Origin: Polaromonas sp.
GTDB taxonomy: Bacteria > Pseudomonadota > Gammaproteobacteria > Burkholderiales > Burkholderiaceae_C
DNA length: 64,000 nt
Assembly: GCF_029945685.1 (NCBI RefSeq)
Contig: NZ_JAQSDA010000020.1
Coordinates: forward strand, 238,044-302,043
Direction: 5' to 3'
Part shown: positions 3,300 through 58,315 of the stretch, in pieces
How the letters are laid out: each line of letters starts with the position of its first letter
How positions within the stretch are numbered: position 1 is the stretch's first letter
Notes under the pieces: model-generated
Seen by the model: the letters and a program-made list of their open reading frames with translations, nothing else
What the model was told of the DNA's origin: nothing
Database searches by the model: none
Program-made: the position numbers and the translations under genes

Positions 3300-4085
3300 C
3301 TAGCTGCGGGAAATGGAGCTGGCGTACAGGCAAATGGCCGCGGCAGCAGCCACATTGAGCGACTCCTCGCCGCCCGGCTGGTCGATGCGCACCTTCAGGC
3401 TGGCCCGGGCCATCAGGTCGTCGCCGACACCCTGCCCTTCGTGTCCCATGGCCCAGGCGCAGGGCATGGGCAGGGTTTGCTGGTGCAGGAAAGCGCCGTG
3501 GTGCGAACTGGTCACCAGGATGGGAACGCTCAAGCCGTCCAGCGCCTGCGGCTCCACCCCTTCGAGCAGCTGAAGCCCGAAATGGGCGCCCATGCCTGCG
3601 CGCAGCACCTTGGGCGACCACAGCGCCGCCGTGCCCTTGAGCGCAATCACCTGGCTGAATCCGAAGGCCGCGGCGCTGCGCAGCATGGAGCCAACGTTGC
3701 CGGCGTCCTGCACCCGGTCGAGAATCAGCGTTGCCGCCCCTGGCGACAGGGCCGTTGGCGCCGGCAGATCAATCACGAACCCCATGCGGGCCGGCGACTC
3801 CAGGCCACTGATCTCGGGCAGCAGGGCATCCGCAATCACTATGGTTTTGATAGCTGCTCGCGCCCATTCGGCGTGGGCCAGAGGCCAAAATGACTCTGCA
3901 AACACGGCCATCGCCGGTGTCAGCCCGCGCAGCAGCGCGGCGCGGCACAGGTGGTCGCCCTCCAGCCAGACCCGTCCCTGCTTGCGGTAGGCCGTGCTGT
4001 CCTGCGAGAGCCTGCGCAGCTCCTTGACCAGGGGGTTGTCGCGCGAGGTGACAAACACCGGCGCCACCGGCGCAGGCGTGCTCAA
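3300..4085 (-). CDS. TrmH/SpoU-family RNA 2'-O-methyltransferase
   Basis: C-terminal SpoU motifs are present ([40 protein letters not shown]). The 445-aa track ORF overlaps rnhB. The plausible start is TTG at 4085, overlapping the rnhB TGA. Confidence 0.8.
3838..3854 (+). repeat. 17-bp RCTMY-N7-ATAGC motif copy
   Basis: ACTATGGTTTTGATAGC, inside the TrmH-family gene (encodes AIKTIV on the minus strand). Confidence 0.6.
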
Positions 4086-4699
4086 CGCAGGACCTCGGCC
4101 ACCGGACTGAACGACCGGCGGTGTTGCGGGCAGGCGCCGTGCGCGCGCAGGGCCGCCAGATGTTCGGCCGTGCCGTAGCCCTTGTGGCCGGCAAAACCGT
4201 ATTGCGGGTATTCGAGGTGGAACTGCTCGCACCAGCGGTCCCGGTGCACCTTGGCCAGGATGGACGCGGCAGAGATGGCCGGTACCAGCGCGTCGCCCTT
4301 GACGATGGCTTCGGCCAGCATGCTGAGCACCGGCAGGCGGTTGCCATCGACCTGCACTTTCACGGGTTTCAGGCGCAAACCCTCGACCGCGCGTTTCATC
4401 GCCAGCATGGTGGCCTGCAGGATGTTGAGGCGGTCGATTTCCTCGACGCTGGCCTGGGCAATCGAGCAGCACAGGGCCTTGGCGAGGATTTCCTCGTAGA
4501 GCTGTTCCCGGCGCCGCGCCGTCAGCACCTTGGAGTCCGCCAGGCCCTTGATGGGCTGCAGATCGTCCAGAATCACCGCGGCGGCCACCACCGGGCCGGC
4601 CAGCGGCCCGCGGCCGGCCTCGTCCACACCGGCCCACAGTCCGGGCGTGTCCCAGGACAGGGTGACCTGTTCAGCCTTCAAGAATGTTCTGGATCGCAT
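4082..4699 (-). CDS. rnhB: Ribonuclease HII
   Basis: 205 aa. [19 protein letters not shown] and DSK motifs typical of RNase HII. Conserved lpxB-rnhB position. Confidence 0.93.
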
Positions 4700-5870
4700 C
4701 GGTGGCCAGTTGGGCGGTGTCGCGCTGCAGTTCGTGGTGCAGCTGCGTGAATCGTTGTTCGACGGCAGCTATTTTTTCGGGTGCGGAGATTTTCGCATCT
4801 ATCCATTGCAGCACCGCAGCGGCCAGCGCCTGCGGCGTGGCGGCATCCTGCAGCAGCTCGGGCACGACAAAATCGCGGCACAGGATGTTGGGCAGGCCCA
4901 CCCAGGGCTGCAGCTTCTTGCGGCGCATGATCTGCCAGGACAGCCAGTTCATGTTGTACGCAATCACCATGGGGCGCTTGAACAGCGCCGCCTCCAGCGT
5001 TGCGGTGCCGCTGGCAATCAGCGTGACATCGCAGGCCGCCAGCACCGTGTGCGACTGCCCGGTGACGATCTGCACCTGTGACCCCACACCTGCTTCCCGC
5101 GCCGCCTGTTCGATCTGCTGGCGCAAGGCGGGCACCGCCGGAACTATTATTTTGATAGCAGGTTGCGCACGCTGGACAAGGGCTGCAGCCCGAAAGAACC
5201 TGTCGGCCAGGTACTGGATCTCGGAGCGTCGGCTGCCGGGCAACACGGCCAGCACCCGATCACCCGCTGCCAGGCCCAGCGCTTGCCGGGCCGCCGCCTT
5301 GTCGGGCTGCATCGGGATCATGCCCGCCAGCGGGTGGCCCACATAGGTAGCGGCAATGCCATGCTGCGCCAGCAGGGCCGGCTCAAAGGGAAAGATGCAC
5401 AGCACGTGGTCGACGCTGCGGCGGATTTTTTCGACCCGGTCTGCGCGCCAGGCCCAGACCGAGGGACTGATGAAATGAACGGTGCGTATGCCGGCGGCCT
5501 TGAGGTCGGCCTCCAGGTCGAGGTTGAAGTCGGGTGCATCGACGCCGATGAACACATCGGGCCGCAACTGCAGCAGCCGCTGCCGGAGCTGCCGGCGGAT
5601 GCCGACAATTTCGCGGTAGTGCCGCAGCACCTCGACATAACCGCGCACCGCCAGCTTTTCGCTGGGCCACCAGGCGGAGAAGCCGCGGCCGGTCATCTGC
5701 GGCCCGCCTATGCCCACCGCCGTCAGCCCCGGCCAGCGTGCGCGACAACCGTCAAGCAGCAAACCGGCCAGCAGGTCACCGGAGGTTTCGCCGGCGACCA
5801 TGGCGAACGCAGGGTCCTTGGAGGTGCCGGCCACTCCACGGGCCGGCAGAGAGCTGGGTGCGTCCGGCAC
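4671..5870 (-). CDS. lpxB: Lipid-A-disaccharide synthase
   Basis: 399 aa. [14 protein letters not shown]-terminus. Lies in the lpxD-fabZ-lpxA-lpxB cluster. Confidence 0.93.
5143..5159 (+). repeat. 17-bp RCTMY-N7-ATAGC motif copy
   Basis: ACTATTATTTTGATAGC, inside lpxB (encodes AIKIIV). Confidence 0.6.
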
Positions 5871-5877
5871 GAGAGGC

Positions 5878-6672
5878 CTAACGCACGATGCCGCGCTGCG
5901 GCGAAGTGGCTTCCAGAAACCCGAGCATCATCTGCACATCGGCTTCGGCTTCGGGATGCCGGGCCGTGAGCGCGGCGATGCGCGCCCTGGCCTGCTCCAG
6001 CGTCAGGTCCTCCCGGTACAGGGCCTTGTGCATGCCCTTGACGGCCGCGATGCGCTCTGGCGTGTAGCCGCGCCGGCGCAGGCCCTCATAGTTCATCGAA
6101 CGCGCCCCGGCAGGCTGGCCCTGGCACATCACGAACGGCGGCAGATCGGCAAACAGCAGCGAACACATGGCGGTCATGCTGTGGGCACCCAGCCGGACGA
6201 ACTGGTGCACGACGGTGAAGCCGCCCAGGATCACCCAGTCGCCGACATGCACATGACCGGCAAGCTGCGAGTTGTTGGCAAAAATCGTGTGGTTGCCGAC
6301 ATCGCAGTCGTGCGCCAGATGCACATAAGCCATGATCCAGTTGTCGTTGCCGACCCGCGTCACCCCGGTGTCGCCGGGCGAGCCGATGTTGAAGGTGCAG
6401 AACTCGCGGATGGTGTTGCGGTCGCCGATGACCAGTTCGCAGGGCTCCCCCGCATACTTCTTGTCCTGTGGAATGGCACCCAGCGAGTTGAACTGGAAAA
6501 TGCGGTTGTCGCACCCTATCGTCGTGTGGCCTTCGATGACGCAATGCGCGCCAATCGTCGTGCCGGCTGCAACCTTGACGTGCGGGCCGATCACGGTGTA
6601 CGGCCCCACGCTGACGCTGCTGTCGAGCTGGGCCTGGGGATCAACCAGCGCTGTGGGATGTATAGCCATCAT
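5878..6672 (-). CDS. lpxA: Acyl-ACP--UDP-N-acetylglucosamine O-acyltransferase
   Basis: 264 aa. [13 protein letters not shown] plus hexapeptide repeats. Cluster context. Confidence 0.94.
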
Positions 6673-6758
6673 GAAAAAATGTACTGTTCAGCGAATAAGT
6701 CGGCCAGCTGCCGCGTCGGCAAGCGCCCCTTCAAGCCTGAGCCTCGGGACATATCTCC

Positions 6759-6852
6759 TGCAAGCAGGGGCCGCGGGTCCGGCTTCGCCGGCCCGCAGGC
6801 GCAGCGGCCCCCTCAGGGGGCAGCACATTACGCGAAGCGAAAAGCGTGGGGG
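6759..6852 (+). repeat. REP1 GC-rich intergenic repeat, copy B
   Basis: GCAAGCAGGGGCCGCGGGTCCGGCTTCGCCGGCCCGCAGGCGCAGCGGCCCCCTCAGGGGGCAG..CGCGAAGCGAAAAGCGTGGGGG. It ends 0 nt from the fabZ stop codon (6853). Confidence 0.8.
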
Positions 6853-12592: not shown

Positions 12593-13780
12593 TCAAGTCG
12601 TCAGATTGCCGGTGATGCGGGTGGCCGCGGCGCGCGCCTGCGCATCCAGCGCCAGCAAGTCGCCGATGCCCCGGATTTCAGAGGCGCTCACGGTGTCCAG
12701 AGTTCCACGGTTCACGGCGTGAATCTGGTCAAAGCGTATCCGTTTTTCAAGGAAAGCGGCCACCGCCACTTCGTTGGCAGCGTTCAGCACCGCCGTGGTG
12801 CCGACAGGCGCATCGAGCACCTCCCAGGCCAGCGGCAAGCCGGGGAAATGTTCGTTGTCCGGAACCGCGAACGTCATGGTGGCCAGCGCCCGGAAATCGA
12901 GCGCCTGCGCACCCGAGGAAATCCGGCCAGGCCAGGCCAGGCCGTAGGCGATCGGCACCCGCATGTCAGGCGTTCCAAGCTGGGCCACCACCGAGGTGTC
13001 GCGGTATTGAACCATCGAATGAATGATGCTTTGCGGGTGAATCACCACCTCGATCTGCGCCGGCGCAAGACCGAACAGGTAACGCGCCTCGATCACTTCG
13101 AGCGCCTTGTTCATCATGGTGGCCGAGTCCACCGAAATCTTGCGGCCCATCACCCAGTTCGGGTGGGCGCAGGCCTCGTCGGGGGTCACGTCGCGCAGCG
13201 TGGCTGGCGCCCGGGTGCGAAACGGCCCCCCGGAGGCTGTCAGGATGATCTTGTCGATGCGCTCCAGCCAGGCCGCCGGGTCTTCGGGCAGGGACTGGAA
13301 GATCGCCGAGTGTTCGCTGTCGATGGGCAACAACTGCGCGCCGCCCTCACGCACGGCCTGCATGAACACCTCGCCGCCGACCACCAGCGCCTCCTTGTTG
13401 GCCAGTAGCAGGCGCTTGCCGGCGCGCGCCGCCGCCATGCAGGCCGCCAGCCCGGCCGCGCCCACGATGGCCGCCATCACGGTATCCACCCGCTCGTCAG
13501 ATGCTATCATTTCAAGAGCATCCGACGCATGAAGGACTTGGGTTGAAAGCCCGTTTTCCTTCAAACTTTGGGCCAGAATGCGGGCGTGCGGGGCGCTTGC
13601 CATGACGGCGTAGGATGGTTTGAAGCGCAGGCACTGCGCCAGCATCAAATCGGTCTGCGTGGCCGCACTGAGCGCAAAAACCTCAAACCGGTCGGGGTGG
13701 CCGGCAATCACGTCCAGTGTATTGACCCCCACCGAGCCGGTCGAGCCCAGCACCGTGACACGTTGTTTCTGCACTGTCAT
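12593..13780 (-). CDS. dxr: 1-deoxy-D-xylulose-5-phosphate reductoisomerase
   Basis: 395 aa. VTVLGSTGSVG, LLANKE and IDSEHSAIFQ motifs. Confidence 0.95.
   Translation of the reverse strand: MTVQKQRVTVLGSTGSVGVNTLDVIAGHPDRFEVFALSAATQTDLMLAQCLRFKPSYAVMASAPHARILAQSLKENGLSTQVLHASDALEMIASDERVDTVMAAIVGAAGLAACMAAARAGKRLLLANKEALVVGGEVFMQAVREGGAQLLPIDSEHSAIFQSLPEDPAAWLERIDKIILTASGGPFRTRAPATLRDVTPDEACAHPNWVMGRKISVDSATMMNKALEVIEARYLFGLAPAQIEVVIHPQSIIHSMVQYRDTSVVAQLGTPDMRVPIAYGLAWPGRISSGAQALDFRALATMTFAVPDNEHFPGLPLAWEVLDAPVGTTAVLNAANEVAVAAFLEKRIRFDQIHAVNRGTLDTVSASEIRGIGDLLALDAQARAAATRITGNLTT
13503..13519 (-). repeat. 17-bp RCTMY-N7-ATAGC motif copy (only minus-strand copy)
   Basis: The minus strand reads GCTCTTGAAATGATAGC, inside dxr (ALEMIA). 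Confidence 0.55.
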
Positions 13781-15385: not shown

Positions 15386-15420
15386 TACGCACAGTGCGCG
15401 CGTTTGAGGGCAACTGTCTT

Positions 15421-15539
15421 TTCAAGCCGGGGCCGCGGAACCGGCCTTGGCCTGTCCTGCGCCGGCCGAAGGGCCGGGCCGCAGGCGCAGCGGCCCCCTC
15501 GGGGGGCAGAGAGCTACGCGAAGCGAGCGAACGTGGGGG
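15421..15539 (+). repeat. REP1 GC-rich intergenic repeat, copy C (longest, with a ~23-nt internal expansion)
   Basis: TTCAAGCCGGGGCCGCGGAACCGGCC...GGGCCGCAGGCGCAGCGGCCCCCTCGGGGGGCAGAGAGCTACGCGAAGCGAGCGAACGTGGGGG. It ends 4 nt from the frr stop codon (15544). Confidence 0.8.
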
Positions 15540-18725: not shown

Positions 18726-19084
18726 AAATAACTCCAAAGGTTGTGTCTAAAATCAGCGCTTATCACCTGAAAGCCTTGTTAAAAGCTCCCGGGCAACACC
18801 TTGAATGACTGATTTGCGATTTGCTGCACGACGGCTCAATTGCCTTTCGCACAGCCTGCTGAGTATAACATCCCTGCCTGTGCCAACGTACCCGCCCGAG
18901 CCCTGTCACGCGCCATCTCCTGTTGCCGGCAAGCTGCCGGCCACGGTTTCCGGCCCGTCCGCACTTCCAAAACAATAGCAGTCGGCGCTTTTTCCGCGCT
19001 GGCTTCTGACCGGTTGAACCCCAGGAACATGAACCCATTGACTGCCTGCACAAGCCCCTGTCCCCGCCCTGCACGGACCGCCCC

Positions 19085-20356
19085 ATGAGGATCGCGGTCA
19101 TCGGCGCCGGCATCATCGGCATCACCACCGCCTGGGAGCTTGCCCGGGACGGCCACGAGGTCACGGTTTTCGATCGCCGCGGCGCCGCTGCCGAAGAAAG
19201 CAGTTTCGCCAATGCCGGCGTGGTGGCCCCGGGCTACGTGACCCCCTGGGCAGCGCCCGGCATGCCGGGCAAGGTGCTGGGCCACCTGCTGGGCCGCCAC
19301 GCGCCGGTCCGGCTCAGCCTGCCGCTGTCCGGCCGCGAGCTGGCCTGGATGTGGAAGTGGTGGCGCGCCTGCCGCCTGGAAACCTACCTGGCCAACCGCG
19401 CCCGCCTGCAGCGCCTGGCTTTTTACAGCCGCGCGCGCCTGCACCAGATCACCGCCGAGTGCCAGCTCGACTACGACCGCAGCCCCGGCTACATGGTGCT
19501 GCTGCGCGCCGAACAGGACGGCCAGATGGTCGAACCCGGCCTGCAGGTGCTGCGTGACGCCGGGGTCAGCTTCCGGCAGATCGGCTCGGACGAGGCGCGC
19601 CGGATCGAACCGGCGCTGAATCCGGACACACCCCTGCTGGGCGCCATTCACCTGCCCGACGACGAAGTGGCCAACTGCCGTCAGTTCGCCCTGCTGCTCA
19701 AAACCGAGGCCCAGCGCCTGGGTGTGACTTTTGAGTTCAATACGACTGTGGCCCAAATGGACCGGGCGCAACCAGCTACCTTTTTGATAGCAGGCGAAGC
19801 GACGCCGCGAAACTTTGACGCCGTGGTGCTGTGCGCCGGCCTGGACTCGGCCTCGCTGCTGCGGCCACTGGGCATCCGCATGCCGCTGGCAGCGGTGTAT
19901 GGCTACTCCCTGAGCGCGCCGATTCGCGAGCCACTGAACGCGCCGCGCAGCGCCCTGATGGACGAACGTTACAAGGTCGCGATCTCGCGCCTGGGCAACC
20001 GAGTTCGCGTGGCCGGCAGCGCCGAAATTGGCGGCCGCCCCGACAGGAAGAGTGCCGCGGCCATCCAGACACTGTACAAGGTGCTGCAGGACTGGTTCCC
20101 GGGTGCTGCCCACACCTCCAACACCACCACCCATGTGCAGGAATGGAAAGGTGTGCGGCCCATGTTGCCGGACGGCCCGCCCATCCTCGGTGCCAGCGGC
20201 CTGCCCGGCCTGTGGCTCAACCTCGGCCACGGCTCCAGCGGATGGGCGCTGAGCTGCGGCAGCGCGCGGGCCGTCGCCGACCTGGTCGCCGGCCAGGCGC
20301 CCGAGATTGACCTCGAAGGGCTGGATCTGAACCGGCTCACATCCCCGGCCGCCTGA
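19085..20356 (+). CDS. dadA: D-amino acid dehydrogenase-like FAD oxidoreductase
   Basis: 423 aa. MRIAVIGAGIIGITTAW dinucleotide fold. Colinear with E. coli DadA (..SFANAG...PGY..PWA.PG.., ..LNLGHGS.GW). Confidence 0.82.
   Translation: MRIAVIGAGIIGITTAWELARDGHEVTVFDRRGAAAEESSFANAGVVAPGYVTPWAAPGMPGKVLGHLLGRHAPVRLSLPLSGRELAWMWKWWRACRLETYLANRARLQRLAFYSRARLHQITAECQLDYDRSPGYMVLLRAEQDGQMVEPGLQVLRDAGVSFRQIGSDEARRIEPALNPDTPLLGAIHLPDDEVANCRQFALLLKTEAQRLGVTFEFNTTVAQMDRAQPATFLIAGEATPRNFDAVVLCAGLDSASLLRPLGIRMPLAAVYGYSLSAPIREPLNAPRSALMDERYKVAISRLGNRVRVAGSAEIGGRPDRKSAAAIQTLYKVLQDWFPGAAHTSNTTTHVQEWKGVRPMLPDGPPILGASGLPGLWLNLGHGSSGWALSCGSARAVADLVAGQAPEIDLEGLDLNRLTSPAA
19775..19791 (+). repeat. 17-bp RCTMY-N7-ATAGC motif copy
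   Basis: GCTACCTTTTTGATAGC, inside the dadA-like gene (ATFLIA). Confidence 0.6.
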
Positions 20357-20374: not shown

Positions 20375-21922
20375 ATGTTAGCCGTCTCCCCTGCCCTCAG
20401 CCTGCCGCTCCACGGGGTTGCTTCGACGCGCCTGCTGGAGCAGCGGGCGGCAGCCCACCTGCCAGCGCACACCCTGATGCAGCGCGCGGGGCTGGCCAGC
20501 GCGCGCCTGGCCCTGGCGCTGGCGCCGCACGCGCAGTGCCTCTGGATCGCCTGCGGGCCGGGCAACAACGGCGGCGACGGACTGGAAGCGGCCCTGCACC
20601 TGCACCAGTGGGGGAAAAACGTGCGGGTGACCTGGCTGGGCGCACAAAACGAAGCCAGGGTACCCGCCGATGCGCTGGCCTCGCTGGCGCGTGCCCGTGC
20701 GGCCGGCGTGCCCTTTGCCGGCACGCCGCCAGCCGGCTTTGACTTCGCCATCGACGCCCTCCTGGGCATAGGCGCGGTACGCCGCCCCACGGCGGCCACG
20801 GGCCAGACCGATCTGCTCGGCCAGTGGCTGGCGCTGCTGCAGGCCAGCCCGCAACCGGTCCTGGCGATCGATATCCCGAGCGGGCTGGACGCCAATACCG
20901 GTGCATCGATTGCTCCTGAATCAATAGCTGCCAGCGCTTTACCTTCAAGGGCTGGTGCCCGATTTACCTTGAGCCTGTTGACACTGAAACCGGGCTTGTT
21001 CACGGCCACCGGCCGCGACTTGGCCGGGCAGGTCTGGTGGGACGACCTCGGCGTCACCCCTGCATCAGCGCTGGCGCCTGACGCCTGGCTGCTGGGCCGG
21101 GACCGTGCCGGGTCGCACCACCGGGCGCAGGCGGCGCATGCCAGCCACAAAGGCAGCTTTGGCGATGTCGCCATCCTCGGCGGCCAGTCCAGCCCGCAAG
21201 CCGCGACCCACATGAGTGGCGCCGCCCTGCTTGCCGGGCGGGCCGCCCTGCATGCCGGCGCCGGACGGGTGTTTGTGGCCCTGCTTGGCGGCGCCGGCCT
21301 CACGGTGGACCCGCAGCAGCCCGAGCTGATGTTCCGCAGTCCCGACGCGCTCGACCTCAAGACCCAGGTGCTGGTCTGCGGCTGTGGCGGCGGCGACGCC
21401 GTGGCCGCCGTGCTGCCGCGCGTGTTGTCGGGCGCGCAGGCCGCCGTGCTGGACGCCGATGCGCTCAATGCCATCGCCGCCGACACCCAGCTGCAAACCC
21501 TGCTCCGGGCCCGCCAGGGCCGCGGCTACCGCACGGTGTTGACACCGCATCCGCTGGAGGCCGCCCGCCTGCTCGGCAGCAGCGCTGCCGTGGTGCAGGC
21601 CGACCGCCTGCTGGCAGCGCGGCAGCTGGCTGAAAATTTCGGCTGTGTGGTGGTGCTCAAGGGTTCGGGCACGGTGATCGCTGCGCCGGACCAGGTCAGC
21701 GCCATCAACCCCACCGGCAACGCGCGCCTGGCCACGGCAGGTACCGGCGATGTGCTGGCGGGCATGGTGGGTGCCCGGCTGGCCGGCGGACAGACGGCCT
21801 TGGATGCCGCATGCAGCGCCGTTTTCCGGCATGGCCAGCTGGCCGATGACTGGTCGGCCTGGCGCCCGGGACAGCCGCTGACCGCCTCCGACCTAGCCCA
21901 GAACCATCAGGCCGATCTGTAG
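20375..21922 (+). CDS. nnr: Bifunctional NAD(P)H-hydrate epimerase / ADP-dependent dehydratase
   Basis: 515 aa. YjeF N-terminal domain (GPGNNGGDG) plus C-terminal carbohydrate-kinase-like domain (GTGDVLAG). Confidence 0.88.
   Translation: MLAVSPALSLPLHGVASTRLLEQRAAAHLPAHTLMQRAGLASARLALALAPHAQCLWIACGPGNNGGDGLEAALHLHQWGKNVRVTWLGAQNEARVPADALASLARARAAGVPFAGTPPAGFDFAIDALLGIGAVRRPTAATGQTDLLGQWLALLQASPQPVLAIDIPSGLDANTGASIAPESIAASALPSRAGARFTLSLLTLKPGLFTATGRDLAGQVWWDDLGVTPASALAPDAWLLGRDRAGSHHRAQAAHASHKGSFGDVAILGGQSSPQAATHMSGAALLAGRAALHAGAGRVFVALLGGAGLTVDPQQPELMFRSPDALDLKTQVLVCGCGGGDAVAAVLPRVLSGAQAAVLDADALNAIAADTQLQTLLRARQGRGYRTVLTPHPLEAARLLGSSAAVVQADRLLAARQLAENFGCVVVLKGSGTVIAAPDQVSAINPTGNARLATAGTGDVLAGMVGARLAGGQTALDAACSAVFRHGQLADDWSAWRPGQPLTASDLAQNHQADL
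20912..20928 (+). repeat. 17-bp RCTMY-N7-ATAGC motif copy (weaker spacer)
   Basis: GCTCCTGAATCAATAGC, inside nnr (APESIA). Confidence 0.45.
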
Positions 21923-31763: not shown

Positions 31764-31873
31764 AGCGCCGAAACCCCAGAACGCGCCAGGCTGGTGGCTG
31801 ATGCCGCCAGCCATTCATGCGTCAAGAAATATAGCCAAATCGGTCGTCAGCCCTTGCTGATATTGCGCCAGCA

Positions 31874-31890
31874 GCTATTTATTTCATAGC
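31874..31890 (+). repeat. 17-bp RCTMY-N7-ATAGC motif copy
   Basis: GCTATTTATTTCATAGC, intergenic downstream of bdhA. Confidence 0.6.
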
Positions 31891-31965
31891 AAACTTATTC
31901 TGCTCGCAACCATGCAAGCACAGCGGGTGTGGACTGGTCCACCGGGGACATATCGCGCCGGCCAT

Positions 31966-32081: not shown

Positions 32082-32115
32082 TGTTTGGTCAGCCTCAGAT
32101 TATAAGGGGTTTTTG

Positions 32116-33221: not shown

Positions 33222-35096
33222 TCAGACCGTCGCTATGTTTTTTCCGGCCAGGGCCTGGCGGATGCCCCGGTTCATGCGCTGGGCCGCAAAGTTCTCGGTA
33301 CCGGCAGCCAGGGCCTTGATGGCGGCTTCGATCTGCGCGGCGTCGCCCTGCTGCCGGACGGCCGCCAGGTCGACCATCAGGCGGTCGATCTCCACCTTTT
33401 CCTCGGGGGTCAGCAGGTCGGCATCGGCATCCAGCGCACTGCGCGTTGCCAGGATCATGCGGTCGGCATCGACCTGCGCCTCGGCCAGCGCGCGCGCCTG
33501 CATGTCCTGCTGGGCCGTTGAAAAACTCTCCTGCAGCATGCGGGCAATGTCGTCGTCGGACAAGCCGTAGGAGGGCTTCACGTCAATCCGCGCTTCCACG
33601 CCGCTGCCCTGCTCCCTCGCGCTGACGCTGAGCAGGCCATCGGCGTCCACGGTGAAGGTCACGCGGATACGCGCCGCGCCTGCGGCCATCGGCGGAATGC
33701 CGCGCAGCTCGAAACGCGCCAGGCTGCGGCAGTCGGCCACCAGGTCGCGCTCACCCTGCACCACATGCAGGGCCAGCGCGGTCTGGCCGTCCTGGTAGGT
33801 GGTGAAGTCCTGCGCCATCGCGGTCGGGATGGTCTGGTTGCGCGGCACGATGCGTTCAACCAGGCCGCCCATGGTTTCGATGCCCAGCGACAGCGGAATC
33901 ACGTCGAGCAACAGCAGGTCGCTGCCGGTGCTGTTGCCGGCCAGCTGGTTGGCCGAAATGGCCGCCCCCAGGGCCACCACTTCGTCGGGGTTGAGGTTGA
34001 TCAGGGGCTCGCGGCCAAACAGGCCGGCCACCGCGCGGCGCACCTGCGGCATGCGCGTGGAGCCGCCCACCAGCACCACGCCCTGCACGTCGTCCTTGCC
34101 CAGCCCGGCATCGCGCAAGGCTTTGCGCGCCACTGTCAGCGTACGCTGGGTCAGCCCGGCCGTGGCAGCTTCAAAGTCCGCAGCCTTCATATCAAATTGC
34201 ACGTTAGCCCTTGCCAGACGGGCGGAGAATGCTACTGAATCCGTAGCAGACAAGGCCTCCTTGCAGACCCGGGCAGCCTGCAGCAATGCGGCTTTGTCGC
34301 CCGGTGTGAGGGTGTCTGCGGCCAGGCCCGCCTTGACCAGCACCCATTCGACCAGCGCGCGGTCATAGTCGTCGCCGCCGAGGGCCGAGTCGCCGCCGGT
34401 GGCCACGACTTCAAACACGCCCTGCGTCAGGCGCAGGATGGAAATGTCAAAGGTGCCGCCACCGAGGTCATAAATCGCGTAAACCCCTTCGCTGGCGTTG
34501 TCCAGGCCGTAGGCAATCGCCGCCGCGGTCGGCTCGTTGATCAGGCGCAGCACGTTGAGCCCGGCCAGTTGCGCGGCATCCTTGGTGGCCTGCCGCTGGG
34601 CGTCGTCAAAGTACGCCGGCACGGTGATGACCGCACCGAAAATCTCGTCGTCAAAGCTGTCTTCTGCCCGGTAGCGCAATGTCGCCAGGATCTCGGCGCT
34701 GACTTCGACCGGGCTTTTTTCACCGGCCACGGTCTGCAGCGTGACCATGCCGGGCTGGTCGATCAGCTGGTAAGGCAATTGCGCGCGGTTGACGATGTCG
34801 CCAATGCCACGGCCCATCAGGCGCTTGACCGAGGCGATGGTGTTTTGCGGATCCTGCACCTGCGCGGCCAGCGCGTCGAAACCGATCTGGCGGCTGGTGA
34901 CGCCCTTGTCGTCGACCAGGTAACGCACCACGCTGGGCAGCAACACACGGCCCAGCGCATCGGGCAGGCATTCGGCCACACCGCTGCGCACGCTGGCCAC
35001 CAGCGAATGGGTGGTGCCCAGGTCAATGCCGATGGCGATGCGCCGCTGGTGCGGATCGGGAGTCTGTCCGGGTTCGGAAATTTGCAGTAGGGCCAT
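33222..35096 (-). CDS. hscA: Fe-S cluster assembly Hsp70 chaperone HscA
   Basis: 624 aa. [13 protein letters not shown] and DLGGGTFD Hsp70 motifs. isc operon context. Confidence 0.95.
34231..34247 (+). repeat. 17-bp motif variant GCTAC-N7-GTAGC
   Basis: GCTACTGAATCCGTAGC, inside hscA. Perfect 5-nt inverted arms but a G in the ATAGC half. Confidence 0.4.
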
Positions 35097-35131: not shown

Positions 35132-35653
35132 CTATTGTCCCAGCGAGTCGATGCGCGCATCAATCTCGCTGCCAAAGCGCTCAATAAACATAAGGCTTCT
35201 GACCTGTTGGGCAGCAGCCGGATAGTCCTTGTCCCGATCCAGCGAGCGCTCTATTTTTGATAGCAGTTCGCGCTTGCTGTTCAAGGTCTGAGCGGCGATT
35301 TCTTCCAGATTGTCCAGGCCCTCGGCCTCTTCCAGCGCTTCACGCCACTGCATCTGCTGAATCAGGAAATCCGGCGGCATGGCCGTGTTGCTCTCGGCCT
35401 GGATGGGCGCGCCGTGCAGCTCACAGAGGTAGATCGCACGTTTGAGCGGGTTCTTCAGCCGTTGGTAGGCCTCATTGATACGCACCGACCACTGCATGGC
35501 CACGCGCTGGGCGGCAGCGCCCTGCGCCGCAAACCTGTCGGGATGCGCCTCGCGCTGCAGCTCTTTCCAGCGCGCGTCGAGCGCGGCACGGTTCTGCGCG
35601 AACTGCGCAGGCACGTCAAAAAGTTCGAAATCGTTGGATTGGAGCGACGCCAC
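35132..35653 (-). CDS. hscB: Fe-S cluster co-chaperone HscB
   Basis: 173 aa with GTG start. J-domain with HPD (REAHPDRF). Confidence 0.9.
35248..35264 (+). repeat. 17-bp RCTMY-N7-ATAGC motif copy
   Basis: GCTCTATTTTTGATAGC, inside hscB (LLSKIE, a different codon phase). Confidence 0.6.
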
Positions 35654-42201: not shown

Positions 42202-42777
42202 GTGCAGGACGCCCTGCGCAACCCCTGCAACCAGGCCCTGCTGGACGGCCTGGCCGACCTGCATCTGCCCGACGCCTGGCTGGTCGGGGGTTGCCTGTTC
42301 CAGACGGTGTGGAACCTGCTGGACGGCCGCTCACCCGGCGCAGGCATCCGCGACTACGATATTTTCTACTTCGACTCCAAAGACCTTTCCGATCATTCGG
42401 AGCAAGCCGCCAACCGGCAGGCACAGGCTCTTTTTTCCGGCCTGGGCGTCCAGCTCGATGTCAGGAACCAGGCGCGAGTGCACCTCTGGTATCCGGCGTA
42501 TTTTGGGCGCCCCTGCCCGCCGCTGCAAAACGCCTGTGAAGGCGTGGACCGCTTTCTGGTGGGCAGCACCAGCGTCGGTTTGCGCCGGGAAGCCGGCCAC
42601 ATAGAGGTTTACGCACCCTACGGACTGGACGACATGTACCGGGGCATCCTCAGCCCCAACCCTCGCGTGGACCACGGGCCCCTGTATGAAAACAAGGTGC
42701 GCGACTACCAGGCGCGCTGGAACTGGCTGGGCCGGCCCGACCCGGCGCCACTTGCGGCCGCACGCCGGGATTTATGA
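42202..42777 (+). CDS. Nucleotidyltransferase-family protein (DUF925-like)
   Basis: 191 aa with GTG start. WLVGGCLFQTVWN..DYDIFYFD pattern typical of this uncharacterised NTase family. Assigned from memory of the family only. Confidence 0.55.
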   Translation: MQDALRNPCNQALLDGLADLHLPDAWLVGGCLFQTVWNLLDGRSPGAGIRDYDIFYFDSKDLSDHSEQAANRQAQALFSGLGVQLDVRNQARVHLWYPAYFGRPCPPLQNACEGVDRFLVGSTSVGLRREAGHIEVYAPYGLDDMYRGILSPNPRVDHGPLYENKVRDYQARWNWLGRPDPAPLAAARRDL

Positions 42778-42814
42778 AAAAAGTGCCTGCATCCCTTATG
42801 GGACAAGCGCAAGC

Positions 42815-42831
42815 AGCTATACATTTGATAG
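42815..42831 (+). repeat. 17-bp RCTMY-N7-ATAGC motif copy
   Basis: GCTATACATTTGATAGC, intergenic between convergent genes. Confidence 0.6.
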
Positions 42832-42861
42832 CAAAATCATGACAACCATTGCCACCATGTA

Positions 42862-43227: not shown

Positions 43228-43247
43228 GGTGTTGGGAGCTTCCCGGT

Positions 43248-45740: not shown

Positions 45741-45766
45741 AGCGCATCAATTGTGGGGGCGGCGTC

Positions 45767-46429
45767 GTGAACCTGCTTGCCGAGCGGCTCAATGCCGCAC
45801 TGCCGCAAACGCAGTGCACGCGCTGCGGCTACCCTAACTGCGCAGCCTACGCGCAGGCCCTGGCCGACGACCAGGCAGGGATCAACCAGTGCCCGCCGGG
45901 CGGTGCCGAAGGCGTCACGCGACTGGCCCTGATCACCGGCCGCCCCGCCCTTCCCCTCAACCCCGACAACGGCAACGAAGGCCCGCGCCAGATGGCCGTG
46001 ATCGACGAGGCCTGGTGCATCGGCTGCACGCTGTGCCTCGACGCCTGCCCGGTAGACGCCATCCTGGGCAGCAACAAGCAGATGCACACCGTGATCGAGT
46101 CCTGCTGCACCGGCTGCGAACTCTGCCTTCCGGTGTGCCCGGTGGACTGCATCAGCCTGGAAAACGTCACGGGCGAGCGCACCGGCTGGGCCGCCTGGTC
46201 GGAAGCCGAAGCCGGGCTGGCCCGAAAGCGCTATGAAATTCATAGCTACCGGCGCTTGCTGGACGAGGGAAAAAACCAGAAAAGACTTGAAGAAAAAGCC
46301 GAAGCCGCGCTGGCAGACCTGCCCGGGCATTCCCGACACACGGACCCTGTGGTGCTGGACCAGAAACGGACCATCATTGAAGCAGCGTTGGCACGCTCAC
46401 GCGCCAGGCGCGACGCAGGCAACAGCTAG
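45767..46429 (+). CDS. RnfB/RsxB-like 4Fe-4S ferredoxin
   Basis: 220 aa with GTG start. N-terminal CTRCGYPNC..C cluster plus two CxxCxxCxxxCP motifs. No other rnf genes are nearby. Confidence 0.8.
   Translation: MNLLAERLNAALPQTQCTRCGYPNCAAYAQALADDQAGINQCPPGGAEGVTRLALITGRPALPLNPDNGNEGPRQMAVIDEAWCIGCTLCLDACPVDAILGSNKQMHTVIESCCTGCELCLPVCPVDCISLENVTGERTGWAAWSEAEAGLARKRYEIHSYRRLLDEGKNQKRLEEKAEAALADLPGHSRHTDPVVLDQKRTIIEAALARSRARRDAGNS
46230..46246 (+). repeat. 17-bp RCTMY-N7-ATAGC motif copy
   Basis: GCTATGAAATTCATAGC, inside the RnfB-like gene (RYEIHS). Confidence 0.6.
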
Positions 46430-46437
46430 GGTCCTTC

Positions 46438-46878: not shown

Positions 46879-46906
46879 GAGGTTCCTCCTGTCCAGCGGG
46901 CATCGG

Positions 46907-54387: not shown

Positions 54388-56511
54388 TCAGACAAACTCG
54401 ACAATTGGCTGGTCCACGCTGAGCGACTCGCCCCTGGCAGCCAGCACCTTGCCGACCACGCCGTCGGCGGTGGCAAACAGCACGTTCTCCATCTTCATGG
54501 CCTCGATCACCGCCACGCGTTCGCCGGCCTGAACCTTCTGGCCGGGCTGCACCGCGACCTCCACCAGCAGTCCTGGCATGGGCGAGAGCACAAAGCGGCT
54601 CATGTCCGGCGGCGCCTTGTAAGGCATCAATGCGTGAAGCTTCGCCGCGCGAGGCGTGAGAACCATCGCATCGAGCCGCGTGCCGTTGTGCGCTATACGG
54701 ATCGCCATGGGATTGCGGCCCACGCCACGCTCAACCTGCGCGGCGAACGGTTCGCCATTGACCGTGCCGCGGATGCGGGCCCCGCCCAGATGCCAGTTGC
54801 TACATATTTCATAGCTGCCGGCGCCCGTCTCCACTCGGCTGGAGCCCGATTTTGCTTGATAGTCCCGCACCATGGCCGCCTGGGCGGTGTTGTTGCCCCC
54901 GGCGCCCAGGTTGACCACCACAAACTCCTCGCCGACCGTCACGCCGTGCCCGGGCATCTGGCCGCTGATACCCGCAGCACGACCCAGCATACGGCGGTTC
55001 ACATAAGCGGCCAGCGCCACCAGAAAGTCCGGGTCGTCATGCGGCACGTCTTCGGCGCGGAAACCCTGGGCGTAGTTTTCGGCGATGAAGCCGGTGTTGA
55101 AGTCGCCGGCGACAAATTTGGGGTGCGCCAGCAGCGCCGCCTGGAAGGGGATGTTGCTGGACACGCCGCGAATCACAAAGCTGTTCAGGGCCTCGCGCAT
55201 CTTCGCGATCGCGTCCCGGCGGTCGGTGCCGTGAACAATGAGCTTGGCAATCATCGAGTCGTAAAACATCGGGATCTCGCCGCCGTCCTGCACGCCGGTA
55301 TCCACGCGCACGCCGTAGAAGCCACCCTCACCCCTGCCCTCTCCCAGAGGGAGAGGGGGCGATTCACTCCCTCTCCTCTCGGGAGAGGGCTGGGGTGAGG
55401 GCTCCCCCGCCGCAAACATGGTTTCCTTCGGCGGCTGGAAGCGCACCAGCCGGCCGGTGGACGGCAGGAAATTGCGGAACGGGTCTTCAGCATTGATGCG
55501 GCATTCGATGGCCCAGCCATTGCGCTGCACGTCCTTCTGCGCCAGCGGCAGCTTCTCGCCGGCTGCCACGCGGATCATCAGCTCGACCAGGTCCAGGCCG
55601 GTGATGCATTCCGTCACCGGATGCTCGACCTGCAGCCGGGTGTTCATCTCGAGGAAGTAAAAACTCTGGTCCTTGCCGACCACAAACTCCACGGTGCCGG
55701 CACTTTCGTATCTGACGGCTTTCGCCAGCGCGACGGCCTGCTCACCCATGGCCTTGCGTGTGGCCTCGCTGATGAAGGGCGACGGCGCCTCTTCGATCAC
55801 CTTCTGGTGGCGGCGCTGGATGGAGCATTCACGCTCGTTGAGGTAAATCACGTTGCCCTGGCTGTCGCCGATCAGCTGGATCTCGATGTGGCGCGGCTCC
55901 TCGACAAATTTTTCGATGAATACACGGTCGTCGCCAAAACTGTTGCGGGCTTCGTTGCGGCAGGAGGTGAAGCCCTCGAAGGCCTCCTTGTCATTGAAGG
56001 CCACGCGCAGGCCCTTGCCGCCACCGCCGGCACTGGCCTTGATCATCACCGGGTAACCAATACCCTGGGCAATCTCGACCGCTTCCTCGGCAGTCTCGAT
56101 CGCGTCATTGACACCGGGAATGCAGTTGACACCGGCTGCGCCGGCCAGTTTTTTCGACTCGATCTTGTCGCCCATCGCGGCGATCGAATAATGCTTGGGG
56201 CCGATGAACACCAGGCCCTCTTCTTCCACGCGTTTGGCAAAGCCGGCGTTTTCGCTGAGGAAGCCGTAGCCCGGGTGAATCGCCTGCGCGCCGGTCTGTT
56301 TGGCCGCCGCAATGATCTTGTCGGCCTGCAAATAGCTGTCGCGGCTGGGCGCGGGACCAATGTGAACCGCCTCGTCGGCCAGCTCCACATGGCGCGCGTC
56401 CTTGTCGGCGTCGGAGTACACCGCGACGGTTTTGATGCCCATCTTGCGGGCGGTGAGGATGACGCGGCAGGCGATTTCGCCCCGATTTGCTATCAGTATC
56501 TTTTCAAACAT
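54388..56511 (-). CDS. pccA: Propionyl-CoA (acyl-CoA) carboxylase alpha subunit: biotin carboxylase + BCCP
   Basis: MFEKILIANRGEIACRV.. from the ATG at 56511 (GGAGAAGG upstream). ATP-grasp domain and C-terminal biotinyl motif EAMKMEN. Carries an in-frame palindromic insertion (see repeat 55325-55401). Confidence 0.92.
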   Translation of the reverse strand: MFEKILIANRGEIACRVILTARKMGIKTVAVYSDADKDARHVELADEAVHIGPAPSRDSYLQADKIIAAAKQTGAQAIHPGYGFLSENAGFAKRVEEEGLVFIGPKHYSIAAMGDKIESKKLAGAAGVNCIPGVNDAIETAEEAVEIAQGIGYPVMIKASAGGGGKGLRVAFNDKEAFEGFTSCRNEARNSFGDDRVFIEKFVEEPRHIEIQLIGDSQGNVIYLNERECSIQRRHQKVIEEAPSPFISEATRKAMGEQAVALAKAVRYESAGTVEFVVGKDQSFYFLEMNTRLQVEHPVTECITGLDLVELMIRVAAGEKLPLAQKDVQRNGWAIECRINAEDPFRNFLPSTGRLVRFQPPKETMFAAGEPSPQPSPERRGSESPPLPLGEGRGEGGFYGVRVDTGVQDGGEIPMFYDSMIAKLIVHGTDRRDAIAKMREALNSFVIRGVSSNIPFQAALLAHPKFVAGDFNTGFIAENYAQGFRAEDVPHDDPDFLVALAAYVNRRMLGRAAGISGQMPGHGVTVGEEFVVVNLGAGGNNTAQAAMVRDYQAKSGSSRVETGAGSYEICSNWHLGGARIRGTVNGEPFAAQVERGVGRNPMAIRIAHNGTRLDAMVLTPRAAKLHALMPYKAPPDMSRFVLSPMPGLLVEVAVQPGQKVQAGERVAVIEAMKMENVLFATADGVVGKVLAARGESLSVDQPIVEFV
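54799..54815 (+). repeat. 17-bp RCTMY-N7-ATAGC motif copy
   Basis: GCTACATATTTCATAGC, inside pccA (SYEICS). Confidence 0.6.
55325..55401. repeat. 77-bp nested palindromic (REP-like) element inside the pccA ORF
   Basis: The outer arms CCCTCACCCCTGCCCTCTCCC and GGGAGAGGGCTGGGGTGAGGG are 20/21 complementary. An inner imperfect palindrome lies around GGCGATTCAC. Confidence 0.85.
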
Positions 56512-56632
56512 ACGCCTTCTCCATCGGGGTGAAATCGCCTGCATGCACTTCGTGCATCAGGCGATGTAGCTGTGCTGCTGCGCCGCTTCGCGGCTGGTCG
56601 CCCCGATTTGCGATCAGTATTTTGTCAAACAT
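56504..56632 (-). other. 42-codon upstream ORF beginning with a duplicate of the pccA 5' end
   Basis: GGAG, 8 nt, then ATGTTTGACAAAATACTGATCGCAAATCGGGGCGA. This is 32/35 identical to the real pccA start. It terminates at a TGA overlapping the pccA ATG (T-ATG-TTTGA). Confidence 0.3.
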
Positions 56633-56654
56633 AAGCGTTGCTCCATGACAGGTT

Positions 56655-56746
56655 TTCAAGCGGGGGCCGCGGAACCGGCTTAGCCGGGCCGCAGGCGCCG
56701 CCCCGGAGGGGGGATCCGGCTACACGGAGTGAGCCGAGAAGGGGGG
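56655..56746 (+). repeat. REP1 GC-rich intergenic repeat, copy D (most diverged)
   Basis: TTCAAGCGGGGGCCGCGGAACCGGCTTAGCCGGGCCGCAGGCGCCGCCCCGGAGGGGGG...GAAGGGGGG. It ends 3 nt from the pccB stop codon (56750). Confidence 0.7.
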
Positions 56747-56749
56747 AAC

Positions 56750-58282
56750 TCATAAGGGAATATTCCCGTGTTTGCGCCACGGATTCTCAAGCTTCTTGTC
56801 TTTCAGCATCACCAGCGAGCGGCAGATGCGCTTGCGGGTTTCATGCGGCAGGATCACGTCGTCGATGAAGCCGCGCGCGCCAGCCACAAAGGGATTGGCA
56901 AACCGCGCCTTGTACTCGGCCTCTTTCGCAGCCAGCTTGACCGGGTCCTTGCGGTCTTCGCGGAAGATGATCTCGACCGCCCCCTTGGCGCCCATCACGG
57001 CGATCTCGGCGTTGGGCCAGGCAAAATTGACATCGCCGCGCAGGTGTTTGGAGCTCATCACGTCATAGGCGCCGCCGTAGGCCTTGCGCGTGATCACGGT
57101 GATTTTCGGCACCGTGCATTCGGCGTACGCATACAGCAGCTTGGCGCCGTGTTTGATGATGCCGCCGTACTCCTGGCTGGTGCCGGGCATGAAGCCGGGC
57201 ACGTCGACAAAGGTGATGACCGGAATGTTGAAGGCATCGCAGAAACGCACAAAACGCGCCGCCTTGATCGAGCTCTTGATATCCAGGCAGCCCGCCAGCA
57301 CCAGCGGCTGGTTGGCGACGATGCCGACGCTCTGGCCTTCCATGCGCGCAAAACCGATGATGATGTTTTTTGCGTACTCGGGCTGCAGCTCGAAGAAGTC
57401 GCCGTCGTCCACCGTCTTGGTGATCAGCTCCTTCATGTCGTAAGGCTTGTTCGGGTTCTCGGGCACCAGGGTGTCCAGGCTCAGGTCCATGCGGCCGGCC
57501 GGGTCGGCGCTGGGGCGGATAGGCGCCTTCTCGCGATTGTTCAACGGCAGGTAGTTGTAGAGCCGGCGCAGCATCAGGAGCGCCTCGACATCGTTTTCAA
57601 ACGCCAGGTCGGCCACGCCGCTGCGCGTGGTGTGGGTGGTGGCGCCGCCGAGCTCCTCGGCGGTGACTTCCTCGTGCGTCACGGTTTTCACGACCTCGGG
57701 GCCGGTGACAAACATGTAGCTGCTGTCCTTGACCATGAAGATGAAGTCCGTCATGGCCGGCGAATACACCGCGCCGCCGGCGCAGGGGCCCATGACCATG
57801 CTGATCTGCGGCACCACGCCCGAGGCCATGACGTTGCGCTGGAACACATCGGCATAACCGCCGAGCGACGCCACGCCTTCCTGGATGCGGGCGCCGCCCG
57901 AATCATTGAGGCCGATGACCGGGGCGCCGACCTTCATGGCCTGGTCCATCACCTTGCAGATTTTCTCGGCATGGGCCTCGCTGAGGGCGCCGCCAAACAC
58001 CGTGAAGTCCTGGCTGAAGACAAACACCAGTCGGCCGTTGATCATGCCGTAGCCGGTCACCACGCCGTCGCCAGGGACCTTGTTGTCAGCCATGCCGAAG
58101 TCGGTGCAACGGTGCTCTACAAACATGTCCCATTCTTCGAACGTGCCTTCGTCGAGCAGCAGCTCCAGCCGCTCGCGCGCCGTGAGTTTTCCTTTGCCGT
58201 GCTGGGCATCGATGCGTTTCTGCCCCCCGCCCAGGCGGGCTGCGGCGCGTTTTGTTTCGAGTTGTTCAAGAATGTCTTGCAT
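56750..58282 (-). CDS. pccB: Propionyl-CoA carboxylase beta (carboxyltransferase) subunit
   Basis: 510 aa. Typical PccB/methylmalonyl-CoA carboxyltransferase sequence ([31 protein letters not shown]). Confidence 0.94.
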
Positions 58283-58298
58283 GGTTCGCTTTCTGTAT

Positions 58299-58315
58299 GC
58301 TCTCTATTTAATAGC
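58299..58315 (+). repeat. 17-bp RCTMY-N7-ATAGC motif copy
   Basis: GCTCTCTATTTAATAGC, spanning the meaB stop codon (..AAIK-TAG). Confidence 0.6.

Follow-up and report, generated by a model that had tools for sequence, protein, structure and literature searches.

A dispersed composite DNA element of about 66 nucleotides in genes and spacers of Polaromonas and related Comamonadaceae

The window analysed here is a stretch of 64,000 nucleotides from a contig of Polaromonas sp. (NZ_JAQSDA010000020.1; GC content 63.6%), in which twelve copies of an element of about 66 nucleotides and a candidate thirteenth are dispersed among genes and spacers. Gene calls were obtained with a codon-usage caller and gene names from Pfam. 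Nine copies have housekeeping hosts, namely a trmH-family gene, lpxB, dxr, a DAO-family gene, nnr, hscA, hscB, a 4Fe-4S ferredoxin gene and the gene for propionyl-CoA carboxylase (PCC) alpha, while one copy ends meaB with its stop codon and two or three lie between genes; nine of the thirteen are thus fully coding. An earlier note, made from the letters of this DNA, had described twelve copies of a 17-bp AT-rich quasi-palindrome. All twelve 17-mers were found as written, with a single correction (42815 to 42816), and the 17-mer proved to be only the AT-rich core of a longer unit, in which a conserved arm of 45-50 nt extends on a single side of each site (right at eight sites, left at four). 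The element has the shape GCTAT-N7-ATAGC followed by the one-sided arm TGCttGCGC-N12-GGGCTGgAGGCC-ATTT, and its parts are the AT-rich quasi-palindrome GCTAT-N7-ATAGC, an arm with a second quasi-palindrome, GCGC-N12-GGGC(TGGAGGCC), and an A/T tract. The best reading is that of a double-stranded DNA recognition motif kept genome-wide, at about one copy per 4-5 kb, in some lineages of the Comamonadaceae, including this Polaromonas.

The over-representation described in the earlier note is real, because the counts far exceed those of a 3rd-order Markov null: its regular expression matched the window 18 times on both strands, against 0.36 +/- 0.71 expected, and TTGATAGC occurred five times, against 0.76 +/- 0.79 expected. 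The 18 matches comprise 11 on the + strand and 7 on the - strand, six of the latter being the same palindromic sites. The arm carries its own signal. In a test on 45 columns outside the 17-mer, where the algorithm picked the side of each arm and arrived at the same sides as were picked by eye, arm-only information was 31.3 bits compared to 10.2 +/- 0.8 for random anchors (z=27), and leave-one-out scoring with the arm columns alone ranked each copy directly behind the other 11 among ~128,000 positions. A profile from 177 foreign copies, built only from other genomes and hence independent of the window, recovered exactly the 12 window sites (E = 8e-16 to 2e-7), followed by the weak thirteenth copy at 18964-19011 (E = 0.01) and then by noise. 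In these 177 copies the information drops to zero outside -3 to +63, where the flanks return to normal GC, and totals 53-61 bits for the element. The head reads ATAGC in 88% of copies and GTAGC in 6%. The consensus of the 177 copies contains neither terminal inverted repeats nor target duplications, and helical phasing of the conserved blocks was looked for without being found. The Markov null, the flank information, the leave-one-out scoring and the independent profile together ruled out chance or codon-pair usage as the source of the copies.

The arm occurs in lineage dialects. The Polaromonas type, GCGC-N12-GGGC, has a fixed G.G mismatch, while the Acidovorax type is a perfect inverted repeat, and it is the presence of the perfect GCGC...GCGC Acidovorax form in some loci of relatives as well that indicates such dialects. 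The perfect-repeat form reads CTAGCGCTTAT-N5-AAAGCGCTAG at 3660-3726 of locus L131 (L numbers denote the loci compared), as seen in the alignment of the rpsB/DAO spacer, and fits the GCTTAT(N)5AAGCG motif of Acidovorax ebreus.

The best copy in the window (3834..3904, +; 53.5 bits, E=8e-16) lies antisense in a trmH/SpoU-family methyltransferase gene (3300-4085, -), across residues ~63-83, with no insertion relative to PDB homologues or 27 orthologues; ten other carrier loci have an orthologous copy. In lpxB (4671-5870, -), the copy at 5143..5205 (+; residues ~223-243; 44.3 bits, E=6e-13) is gap-free when compared to E. coli LpxB (5W8N) and 30 orthologues, and is kept in nine other carriers. 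A weaker copy in dxr (12593-13780, -), located at 13499..13570 (+; residues ~73-93, DALEMIAS; 26.9 bits, E=1.7e-7), is gap-free against E. coli Dxr and common to loci L121, L124, L131 and L160 only. The candidate thirteenth copy (18964..19011, +; 11.6 bits, E=0.01) lies in the divergent spacer between rpsB, identified by Pfam, and the DAO-family gene. It corresponds to one of the degenerate half-sites listed in the earlier note, that at 18972; the other half-sites, at 4771, 24828 and 30928, are not members of the family. The same spacer holds stronger orthologous copies in L131, L140 and L151 and shows graded decay at the same length in L135, L155 and L162, and the thirteenth copy of the window is a decayed orthologue. 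The neighbouring DAO-family (dadA-like) oxidoreductase gene (19085-20356, +; Pfam) contains a copy at 19726..19792 (-; residues ~216-236; 35.3 bits, E=4e-10), and nnr/yjeF (20375-21922, +) contains one at 20908..20970 (+; residues ~180-200, at the end of YjeF_N; 45.2 bits, E=3e-13), where only ~10 residues are extra relative to T. maritima Nnr and not a 22-residue insert.

An intergenic copy (31831..31893, -; 45.2 bits, E=3e-13) is located in the convergent spacer between adh_short (30981-31763, +) and tRNA-Val(CAC) (32010-32081, -) with dnaQ, and has an orthologue of 55.6 bits in Polaromonas sp. UC242_47 (L220:10940-11009). A candidate small RNA downstream of 31874 was rejected, since its 'terminator' belongs to the minus-strand tRNA-Val. 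In hscA (33222-35096, -), the copy at 34186..34249 (-; residues ~284-304, gene-sense; 28.3 bits, E=6e-8) has orthologous copies in L218, L219 and L220, and in hscB (35132-35653, -) that at 35245..35309 (+; residues ~115-136; 26.8 bits, E=1.8e-7) has orthologous copies of up to 43 bits in L219, L220, L221 and L223, the HSCB_C Pfam match (92-165 to 1-74) showing no length excess. The second intergenic copy (42766..42834, -; 44.1 bits, E=7e-13) fills the convergent spacer of 84 nt that separates an NTP_transf_6 gene (42202-42777, +) from a SnoaL-like gene (42862-43227, -), both named from Pfam, and its orthologue at L220:109-177 scores 47 bits. A further copy (46228..46291, +; 27.4 bits, E=1.2e-7) lies in the C-terminal tail of a 4Fe-4S (RnfB-like) ferredoxin gene (45767-46429, +; Pfam). 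The PCC-alpha gene (54388-56511, -) bears a copy at 54795..54861 (+; 44.7 bits, E=5e-13) in the BT domain (residues ~551-571), with nearby gaps of only 3-4 residues relative to 3N6R and no 22-residue insert. At the 3' end of meaB (58304-59353, -), identified by gene map, translation and Pfam, the core of the copy at 58296..58353 (+; 45.8 bits, E=2e-13) forms the final codons together with the stop (AAIK*); a carboxyltransferase gene (56750-58282, -) starts 16 nt further on. The gene map of the window agreed with the earlier note in placing nine copies inside genes with good support, across three codon phases and in either orientation, one copy over a stop codon, that of meaB, and two of the twelve between genes.

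Two features of the PCC-alpha gene itself were also recorded. A 42-nt direct repeat, 88% identical (family D19), occurs at 56477-56518 and 56598-56639; its first copy is the 5' end of the gene and encodes MFEKILIANRGE, while the other is found 121 nt upstream, within the spacer. The pair suggests that a fragment of the gene start was duplicated. In addition, residues ~365-398 form a Pro/Gly/Ser-rich segment of ~35 residues (...aagepspqpsperrgsespplplgegrgeggf...) that has no counterpart in solved PCC or methylcrotonyl-CoA carboxylase (MCC) alpha subunits and probably represents a low-complexity linker inserted where the BC domain joins the BT domain.

Comparison of the sites with their orthologues revealed that base substitution at the site itself, and not insertion, underlies the origin, persistence and decay of copies. 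In alignments with solved homologues, Dxr, LpxB and the TrmH-family protein show no insert at the site, and PCC-alpha and Nnr have 3-10 extra residues near it, not 22. The 91-residue windows around the trmH, lpxB and dxr sites were gap-free in nearly all orthologues listed, carriers and non-carriers alike (27-79 orthologues per gene were taken into the gap-free codon analysis), and the peptides barely differ. Carriers spell GCA GCT ATC AAA AaC ATA GTG ATT and TTT TGG CCT CTa GCC C, where non-carriers encode nearly the same residues with GC-rich codons. Among carriers, the fraction of identical codons at synonymous pairs was 0.63-0.70 in the element compared to 0.48-0.51 in the flanks, and the GC content of third codon positions was 0.37-0.44 compared to 0.75-0.79, while in non-carriers no contrast between element and flanks was detected for either measure. 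In accordance with the earlier note, which had suggested that the constraint acts on the DNA and not on a peptide and had called for a comparison of orthologous positions, the copies lie in unrelated genes in several frames and orientations, and the DNA of orthologous sites is held at synonymous positions in carriers.

Flank mapping gave the same result. When the flanks of every copy were mapped on other loci, 93 of 102 syntenic partners without the element kept the 60-69-nt interval, and in the non-coding rpsB/DAO spacer the interval was 89-91 nt in carriers and non-carriers alike, the 'absent' sequences looking like graded decay of the same 66 nt. The sole length difference found, downstream of tRNA-Val, was a 195-nt block and not a 66-nt indel. 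The best pair of non-orthologous copies reached an identity of 0.77, against a null maximum of 0.75 +/- 0.02 for independent draws from the position weights; closer pairs were only orthologues with conserved flanks, and no near-identical paralogues were found among the compared copies. Each site thus fits a single set of position weights independently of the others. In-frame insertion, as by Rickettsia palindromic elements (RPE) or miniature inverted-repeat transposable elements (MITE), was rejected on the strength of the alignments with PDB homologues and orthologues and of the flank mapping. Two candidates for a clean insertion polymorphism in a spacer were also discarded, L151 being a messy variable spacer with an orthologous copy and the dnaQ/tRNA-Val spacer differing by the 195-nt block. 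As for the latter, the window spacer 31764-32115 (dnaQ/tRNA-Val(CAC)/adh_short) varies in length among Polaromonas (L218, L219, L220 and L222, ~10700-11050): the window and L220 have the ~195-nt block with the element, L219 and L222 lack it, and an OmpA-like gene occupies the place in L218. It is a typical variable spot downstream of a tRNA.

The placement of copies relative to genes was determined in the relatives, where genes were called with our own caller trained on the window. There, 59% of copies are intergenic, 16% lie at gene edges and 24% are fully coding, while ~16% of the DNA is non-coding, and the element is enriched ~12-fold per base between genes. Intergenic copies lie at a median of 15-25 nt from stop codons; convergent spacers are enriched (32% of intergenic copies vs 17% of spacers) and divergent ones depleted (10% vs 26%). 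In 122 intergenic copies, the two ends of the element faced gene starts about equally often (core 47, arm 48; 36:35 in co-directional spacers). Copies are solitary, with neighbours within 300 nt in 2 of 107 cases. Coding copies prefer certain codon phases (25 of 31 and 13 of 15), which would be expected if the AT-rich core had to avoid TAG, TGA and TAA in frame. Copies accumulate where the sequence is permissive, that is, after stop codons, in convergent spacers and in poorly conserved protein stretches, and show no preferred orientation or position relative to genes. Clustering of 762 proteins from 118 loci, the matched stretches listed, gave generic families only and no linked 'master' gene, and no transposase-like family recurs beside the copies in those loci.

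The loci of relatives were found by a strict pattern scan with one genome per species, and the primary matches are therefore biased toward strong copies. The scan yielded at least 118 stretches, nearly all from Comamonadaceae, with Polaromonas foremost, followed by Rhodoferax, Acidovorax, Simplicispira, Curvibacter, Ottowia, Ramlibacter, Hylemonella and Giesbergeria. The profile derived from the window detected 190 copies in 855 kb of the matched stretches listed, or 1 per 4.4 kb, with which the density of the window (13 copies in 64 kb) agrees. Carriage is all-or-none per genome and patchy on a neighbour-joining tree of Dxr, as judged on pieces of 13-21 kb, many of them from metagenomes, and on a tree of one gene. 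The element was present in only 10 of 80 metagenomic loci with Dxr orthologues (67-81% identity), the two loci closest by Dxr (L120 and L123) had none in 13-21 kb, and carriers fell into at least four clades, interleaved with long non-carrier loci. Orthologous sites are common to carriers of at least four clades, which argues for ancestral presence and repeated decay. Of six named Polaromonas loci, five have copies; that of P. eurypsychrophila, over 20.7 kb, is free of them. The window itself groups with Polaromonas by its dnaQ, 82-92% identical to named proteins of that genus, and its exact HscA is recorded only in a Logan assembly.

In pPNAP01, a conjugative plasmid of P. naphthalenivorans CJ2, which is a carrier according to publication, 150 kb contained no full copy, and a BLAST search of PLSDB with the consensus matched only three plasmids. 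Genuine copies occur on a few predicted viral contigs of IMG/VR, some with two or three within 1-13 kb. One of these contigs (L217, GC 0.72) has three copies within ~1.2 kb (2063-3292), with the Acidovorax-type arm and a perfect GCGC...GCGC palindrome, and others are L205 (1517-2151) and L203. These viral-contig copies may include host DNA. Plasmid pPNAP01 (L226) also contains, unrelated to the motif, two annotated genes for IscB RNA-guided endonucleases (42315-43709 and 45563-46882) beside type IV pilin genes.

Several explanations of the element were weighed. The earlier note had likened its strand polarity, with eleven of twelve copies in one orientation, to that of short replication-oriented motifs such as Chi or KOPS (FtsK-orienting polar sequence). 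The strand counts it had relied on were reproduced in the window (TTGATAGC, + 5 and - 0; TTT[GC]ATAGC, + 7 and - 1), the T-rich centre lies on the + strand in 9 of 12 copies, and the cumulative GC skew is monotonic across the window. The figure of eleven arose, however, because the copies had been oriented by the T-rich centre; 6 of the 11 + strand matches to the regular expression also match on the - strand, so that palindromic sites were counted twice, and orientation defined by the arm is 8:4 (p=0.39), or 9:4 with the thirteenth copy (p=0.27). A T-rich centre on the + strand whatever the side of the arm is not significant (p=0.10), and 32% of foreign copies have A-rich centres. With the symmetric orientation of the 122 intergenic copies in relatives and a unit of ~66 nt instead of an 8-17-mer, replication polarity is very improbable. 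A cis-regulatory or RNA element, such as a sigma-70 promoter, a LysR T-N11-A operator, a terminator or a small RNA, has an even slighter chance of being correct. Read from arm to core, some copies do resemble TTG-N17-TATnAA, the core fits T-N11-A, and many copies lie near gene ends. Nevertheless, a promoter scan of the stretch from 30 to 47 kb flagged none of the four copies there (31874, 34231, 35248 and 42816), most window copies are mid-gene, and the intergenic ones avoid divergent promoter spacers and favour gene ends and convergent spacers with no orientation preference; the promoter was rejected on these grounds, and the doubt expressed in the earlier note about a local LysR operator was well founded. 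At gathering thresholds, Rfam recognized only two tRNAs in the window. Consensus folding with alifold gave an energy of ~0 on both strands, mutual information was barely above the null and not of Watson-Crick type, and the best pairing register contains the fixed G.G mismatch, with inner pairs at the chance level of 0.37-0.49. These analyses, the register scans and the comparison of minimum free energies with genomic controls ruled out a hairpin of the kind formed by repetitive extragenic palindromic (REP) sequences.

It is also improbable that the copies are old, decaying remnants of a non-autonomous mobile element (MITE, REP or its paired form REPIN, or RPE-like) whose past transposition had targeted spacers and, with the frame preserved, genes. 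The element is a discrete unit with sharp boundaries and hundreds of copies, mostly extragenic and near gene ends; its (A/G)TAGC head recalls the GTAG head of REPs, the arm folds 1.5-2 kcal/mol better than genomic controls (-10.3 vs -8.4 to -8.9 kcal/mol), the Acidovorax-type variant has a perfect inverted repeat (PMC5217627), and one spacer differs by the 195-nt block that contains the element. Against this stand the absence of added length in coding copies relative to distant homologues, the equal lengths with or without the element in 93 of 102 syntenic comparisons and in the non-coding spacer, the lack of terminal repeats, target duplications, covariation-supported hairpin and near-identical paralogues, the solitary copies, the want of a transposase-like neighbour in the matched stretches listed, and the copy-free 150 kb of the carrier plasmid. 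A mobile-element origin of the coding copies is already largely refuted. A more serious alternative, rated as somewhat unlikely, is a high-affinity site of an abundant chromosome-associated protein or complex, either a multi-dimer nucleoid protein or a topoisomerase or IHF-type factor as at the REP and bacterial interspersed mosaic elements (BIME) of E. coli, with weak purifying selection at each site for chromosome structure or for supercoil management downstream of transcription units. Two quasi-palindromes and an A/T tract over ~66 bp have the size of a tetramer or oligomer footprint, the enrichment 15-25 nt past stop codons and in convergent spacers coincides with the places where positive supercoils accumulate, orthologous copies are held across species at synonymous sites, RNA structure is absent from the element, and the earlier note had itself mentioned an 'array of nucleoid-protein sites'. 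A local function could, however, be served from nearby spacers, which leaves the rare-codon copies in essential genes unexplained; all-or-none loss in close sister lineages would be odd for core chromosome architecture, the conserved blocks are not helically phased, and no candidate protein was found.

What seems very likely is that a dispensable trans-acting DNA-binding factor reads the motif and that a genome-wide directional pressure linked to this factor keeps the copy number up; lineages losing the factor would then lose the motif. As to the nature of the pressure, we tentatively favour a self-DNA tag of the uptake-signal kind, an interpretation held with limited confidence. Homologous DNA with the motif would be preferentially bound, taken up or recombined in natural transformation, and because of this preference motif-improving substitutions would spread by molecular drive, as for the uptake signal sequences (USS) of Pasteurellaceae and the DNA uptake sequences (DUS) of Neisseriaceae. 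The self-DNA tag is preferred because it best explains the copies forced into essential genes against codon bias, as well as the pile-up in the least constrained DNA, the dialects and the copy-free plasmid. It would also fit the transformation biology of the Comamonadaceae: Verminephrobacter and Acidovorax are naturally transformable through type IV pili, and competition data for them suggest selective DNA binding, with no uptake sequence known (PMC4212676). That the motif is the uptake or self-recognition signal of transformable Comamonadaceae, and so a third, independently evolved, long, composite and dialect-forming family of uptake sequences, is a more doubtful proposition; if true, the repeated loss of the motif would track loss of the receptor, and the selective DNA binding reported for Verminephrobacter and Acidovorax would be accounted for.

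Several observations weigh against the self-DNA tag. No protein family was linked in cis among the 762 proteins of the matched stretches listed, and no reader protein was identified. With ~66 bp and 53-61 bits, the element is far above known uptake signals, which have cores of 9-12 bp and extend over ~30 bp at most, and it is 4-5 times sparser (1 per 4.4 kb vs ~1 per kb). The two or three copies on some viral or prophage contigs are not predicted, unless these contigs are host DNA or long-resident prophages, and the enrichment after gene ends could reflect a local function instead of permissiveness. Finally, the carrier calls rest on windows of 13-21 kb and a single-gene neighbour-joining tree, and the loci of relatives were ascertained through the strict pattern.

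To our knowledge, sequence-tagged self-DNA is known from only two bacterial families, and the Comamonadaceae are environmentally dominant. In them, a longer, composite motif shows a tag-like evolution, with in-place writing in essential genes against codon bias, synonymous conservation, all-or-none carriage and absence from a plasmid. Should it be an uptake tag, it would provide a new experimental system in which the comparison of carriers with non-carriers is a direct route to the receptor; if it serves the nucleoid or DNA topology instead, coding sequence would here, unusually, be made to carry a chromosome-architecture motif. Whatever its function, the motif produces islands of rare codons as well as stop codons where genes end, and as a lineage marker it serves to tell core from acquired DNA in Comamonadaceae genomes and metagenome-assembled genomes.

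Over-representation of the element is already on record in the form of fragments, without architecture, evolution or function. In a survey of pentamer pairs, Tong and Mrazek (2017, BMC Genomics 18:27; PMC5217627) reported for P. naphthalenivorans CJ2 the pair ATAGCT(N)22CAAAAG, left unexplained as a 'potential novel motif', with 125 copies, of which 101 (81%) were intergenic and 18 (14%) genic, with 34 between convergent genes and a distance of ~50 bp from genes, and GCTTAT(N)5AAGCG in A. ebreus TPSY, likewise unexplained, with 114 copies, 44 of them convergent and 4 divergent. The supplement lists for CJ2, at gap 6, GCTAT_GATAG, CTATA_ATAGC and CTACT_ATAGC, which are exactly the 17-mer core of the window, and Rhodoferax ferrireducens T118 had the most significant pairs (140) of all surveyed genomes (PMC5217627). 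These pentamer pairs very probably belong to the same element family. The N22 spacing to CAAAAG in CJ2 misfits the window consensus, and CJ2 may therefore carry a dialect. The survey recorded fragments in single genomes only, without the 66-nt architecture, the patchy family-wide distribution, the in-place origin, the synonymous constraint or the plasmid depletion. In a literature search by sequence string, the matches listed were all unrelated and eukaryotic.

Among known repeats, the beta-proteobacterial repeat element (BRE; Hot et al. 2011) is 75-91 bp long with 69% GC and often in tandem, as a variable number tandem repeat (VNTR), and has been reported in Polaromonas, Rhodoferax, Acidovorax and Delftia, mostly between genes with some copies in genes (PMC3110155). 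Its published description sets it apart from the present element, which has an AT-rich core, is solitary and measures ~66 nt, and identity with BRE was rejected. The window does contain a second, unrelated, GC-rich dispersed repeat family of 45-90 nt (families D13, D16 and D17; e.g., CAAGCGGGGGCCGCGGAACCGGCTT.GCCGGGCCGCAGGCGCAGCGGCCCCCTC.GGGGGCAG) in the spacers 6757-6840, 15419-15526 and 56653-56701, and it is more likely these repeats that correspond to BRE, judging by size, GC content and location. Like RPEs and in-frame MITEs, the element is a dispersed repeat within coding genes that keeps the frame, but RPEs are insertions of 30-50 residues, whereas the host proteins of the element have the same length as homologues without it. 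Like REP, BIME and REPIN sequences, the element is short, has hundreds of extragenic copies that follow gene ends or separate convergent genes, bears an xTAG head beside a GC-rich quasi-palindrome and may have a protein-binding role (gyrase, IHF). REPs, however, form stable hairpins, are usually paired or clustered, are strictly extragenic and are spread by RAYTs (REP-associated tyrosine transposases), whereas the element has no supported hairpin and is solitary, a quarter or more of its copies are genic without added length, and no RAYT-like neighbour occurs in the matched stretches listed. HIP1 (GCGATCGC) of cyanobacteria is over-represented in genes and spacers and is thought to be kept in place at orthologous positions, but it is an 8-bp perfect palindrome, far denser and linked to a methyltransferase, while the element is long, composite and asymmetric.

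USS and DUS are lineage-specific and of high copy number in both orientations, are enriched in the spacers after genes, are kept at orthologous sites and form dialects. Within coding regions they arise in place, where the frame is permissive and the protein segment poorly conserved, and recently acquired DNA is depleted of them. Their behaviour in coding regions is the same as that of the element (PMC2817400). The element differs from these sequences, which have near-invariant cores of 9-12 bp at ~1 per kb, in being ~66 bp long and degenerate, and its intergenic enrichment, at ~12-fold per base, is stronger. It resembles them in its over-representation in both orientations, in its lineage specificity (carriers have 1 per 4.4 kb, sister lineages none) and in copies that arise in place by substitution, also in coding regions at permissive positions and frames, and it is the self-recognition DNA tags of these two other bacterial families that the element behaves most like.

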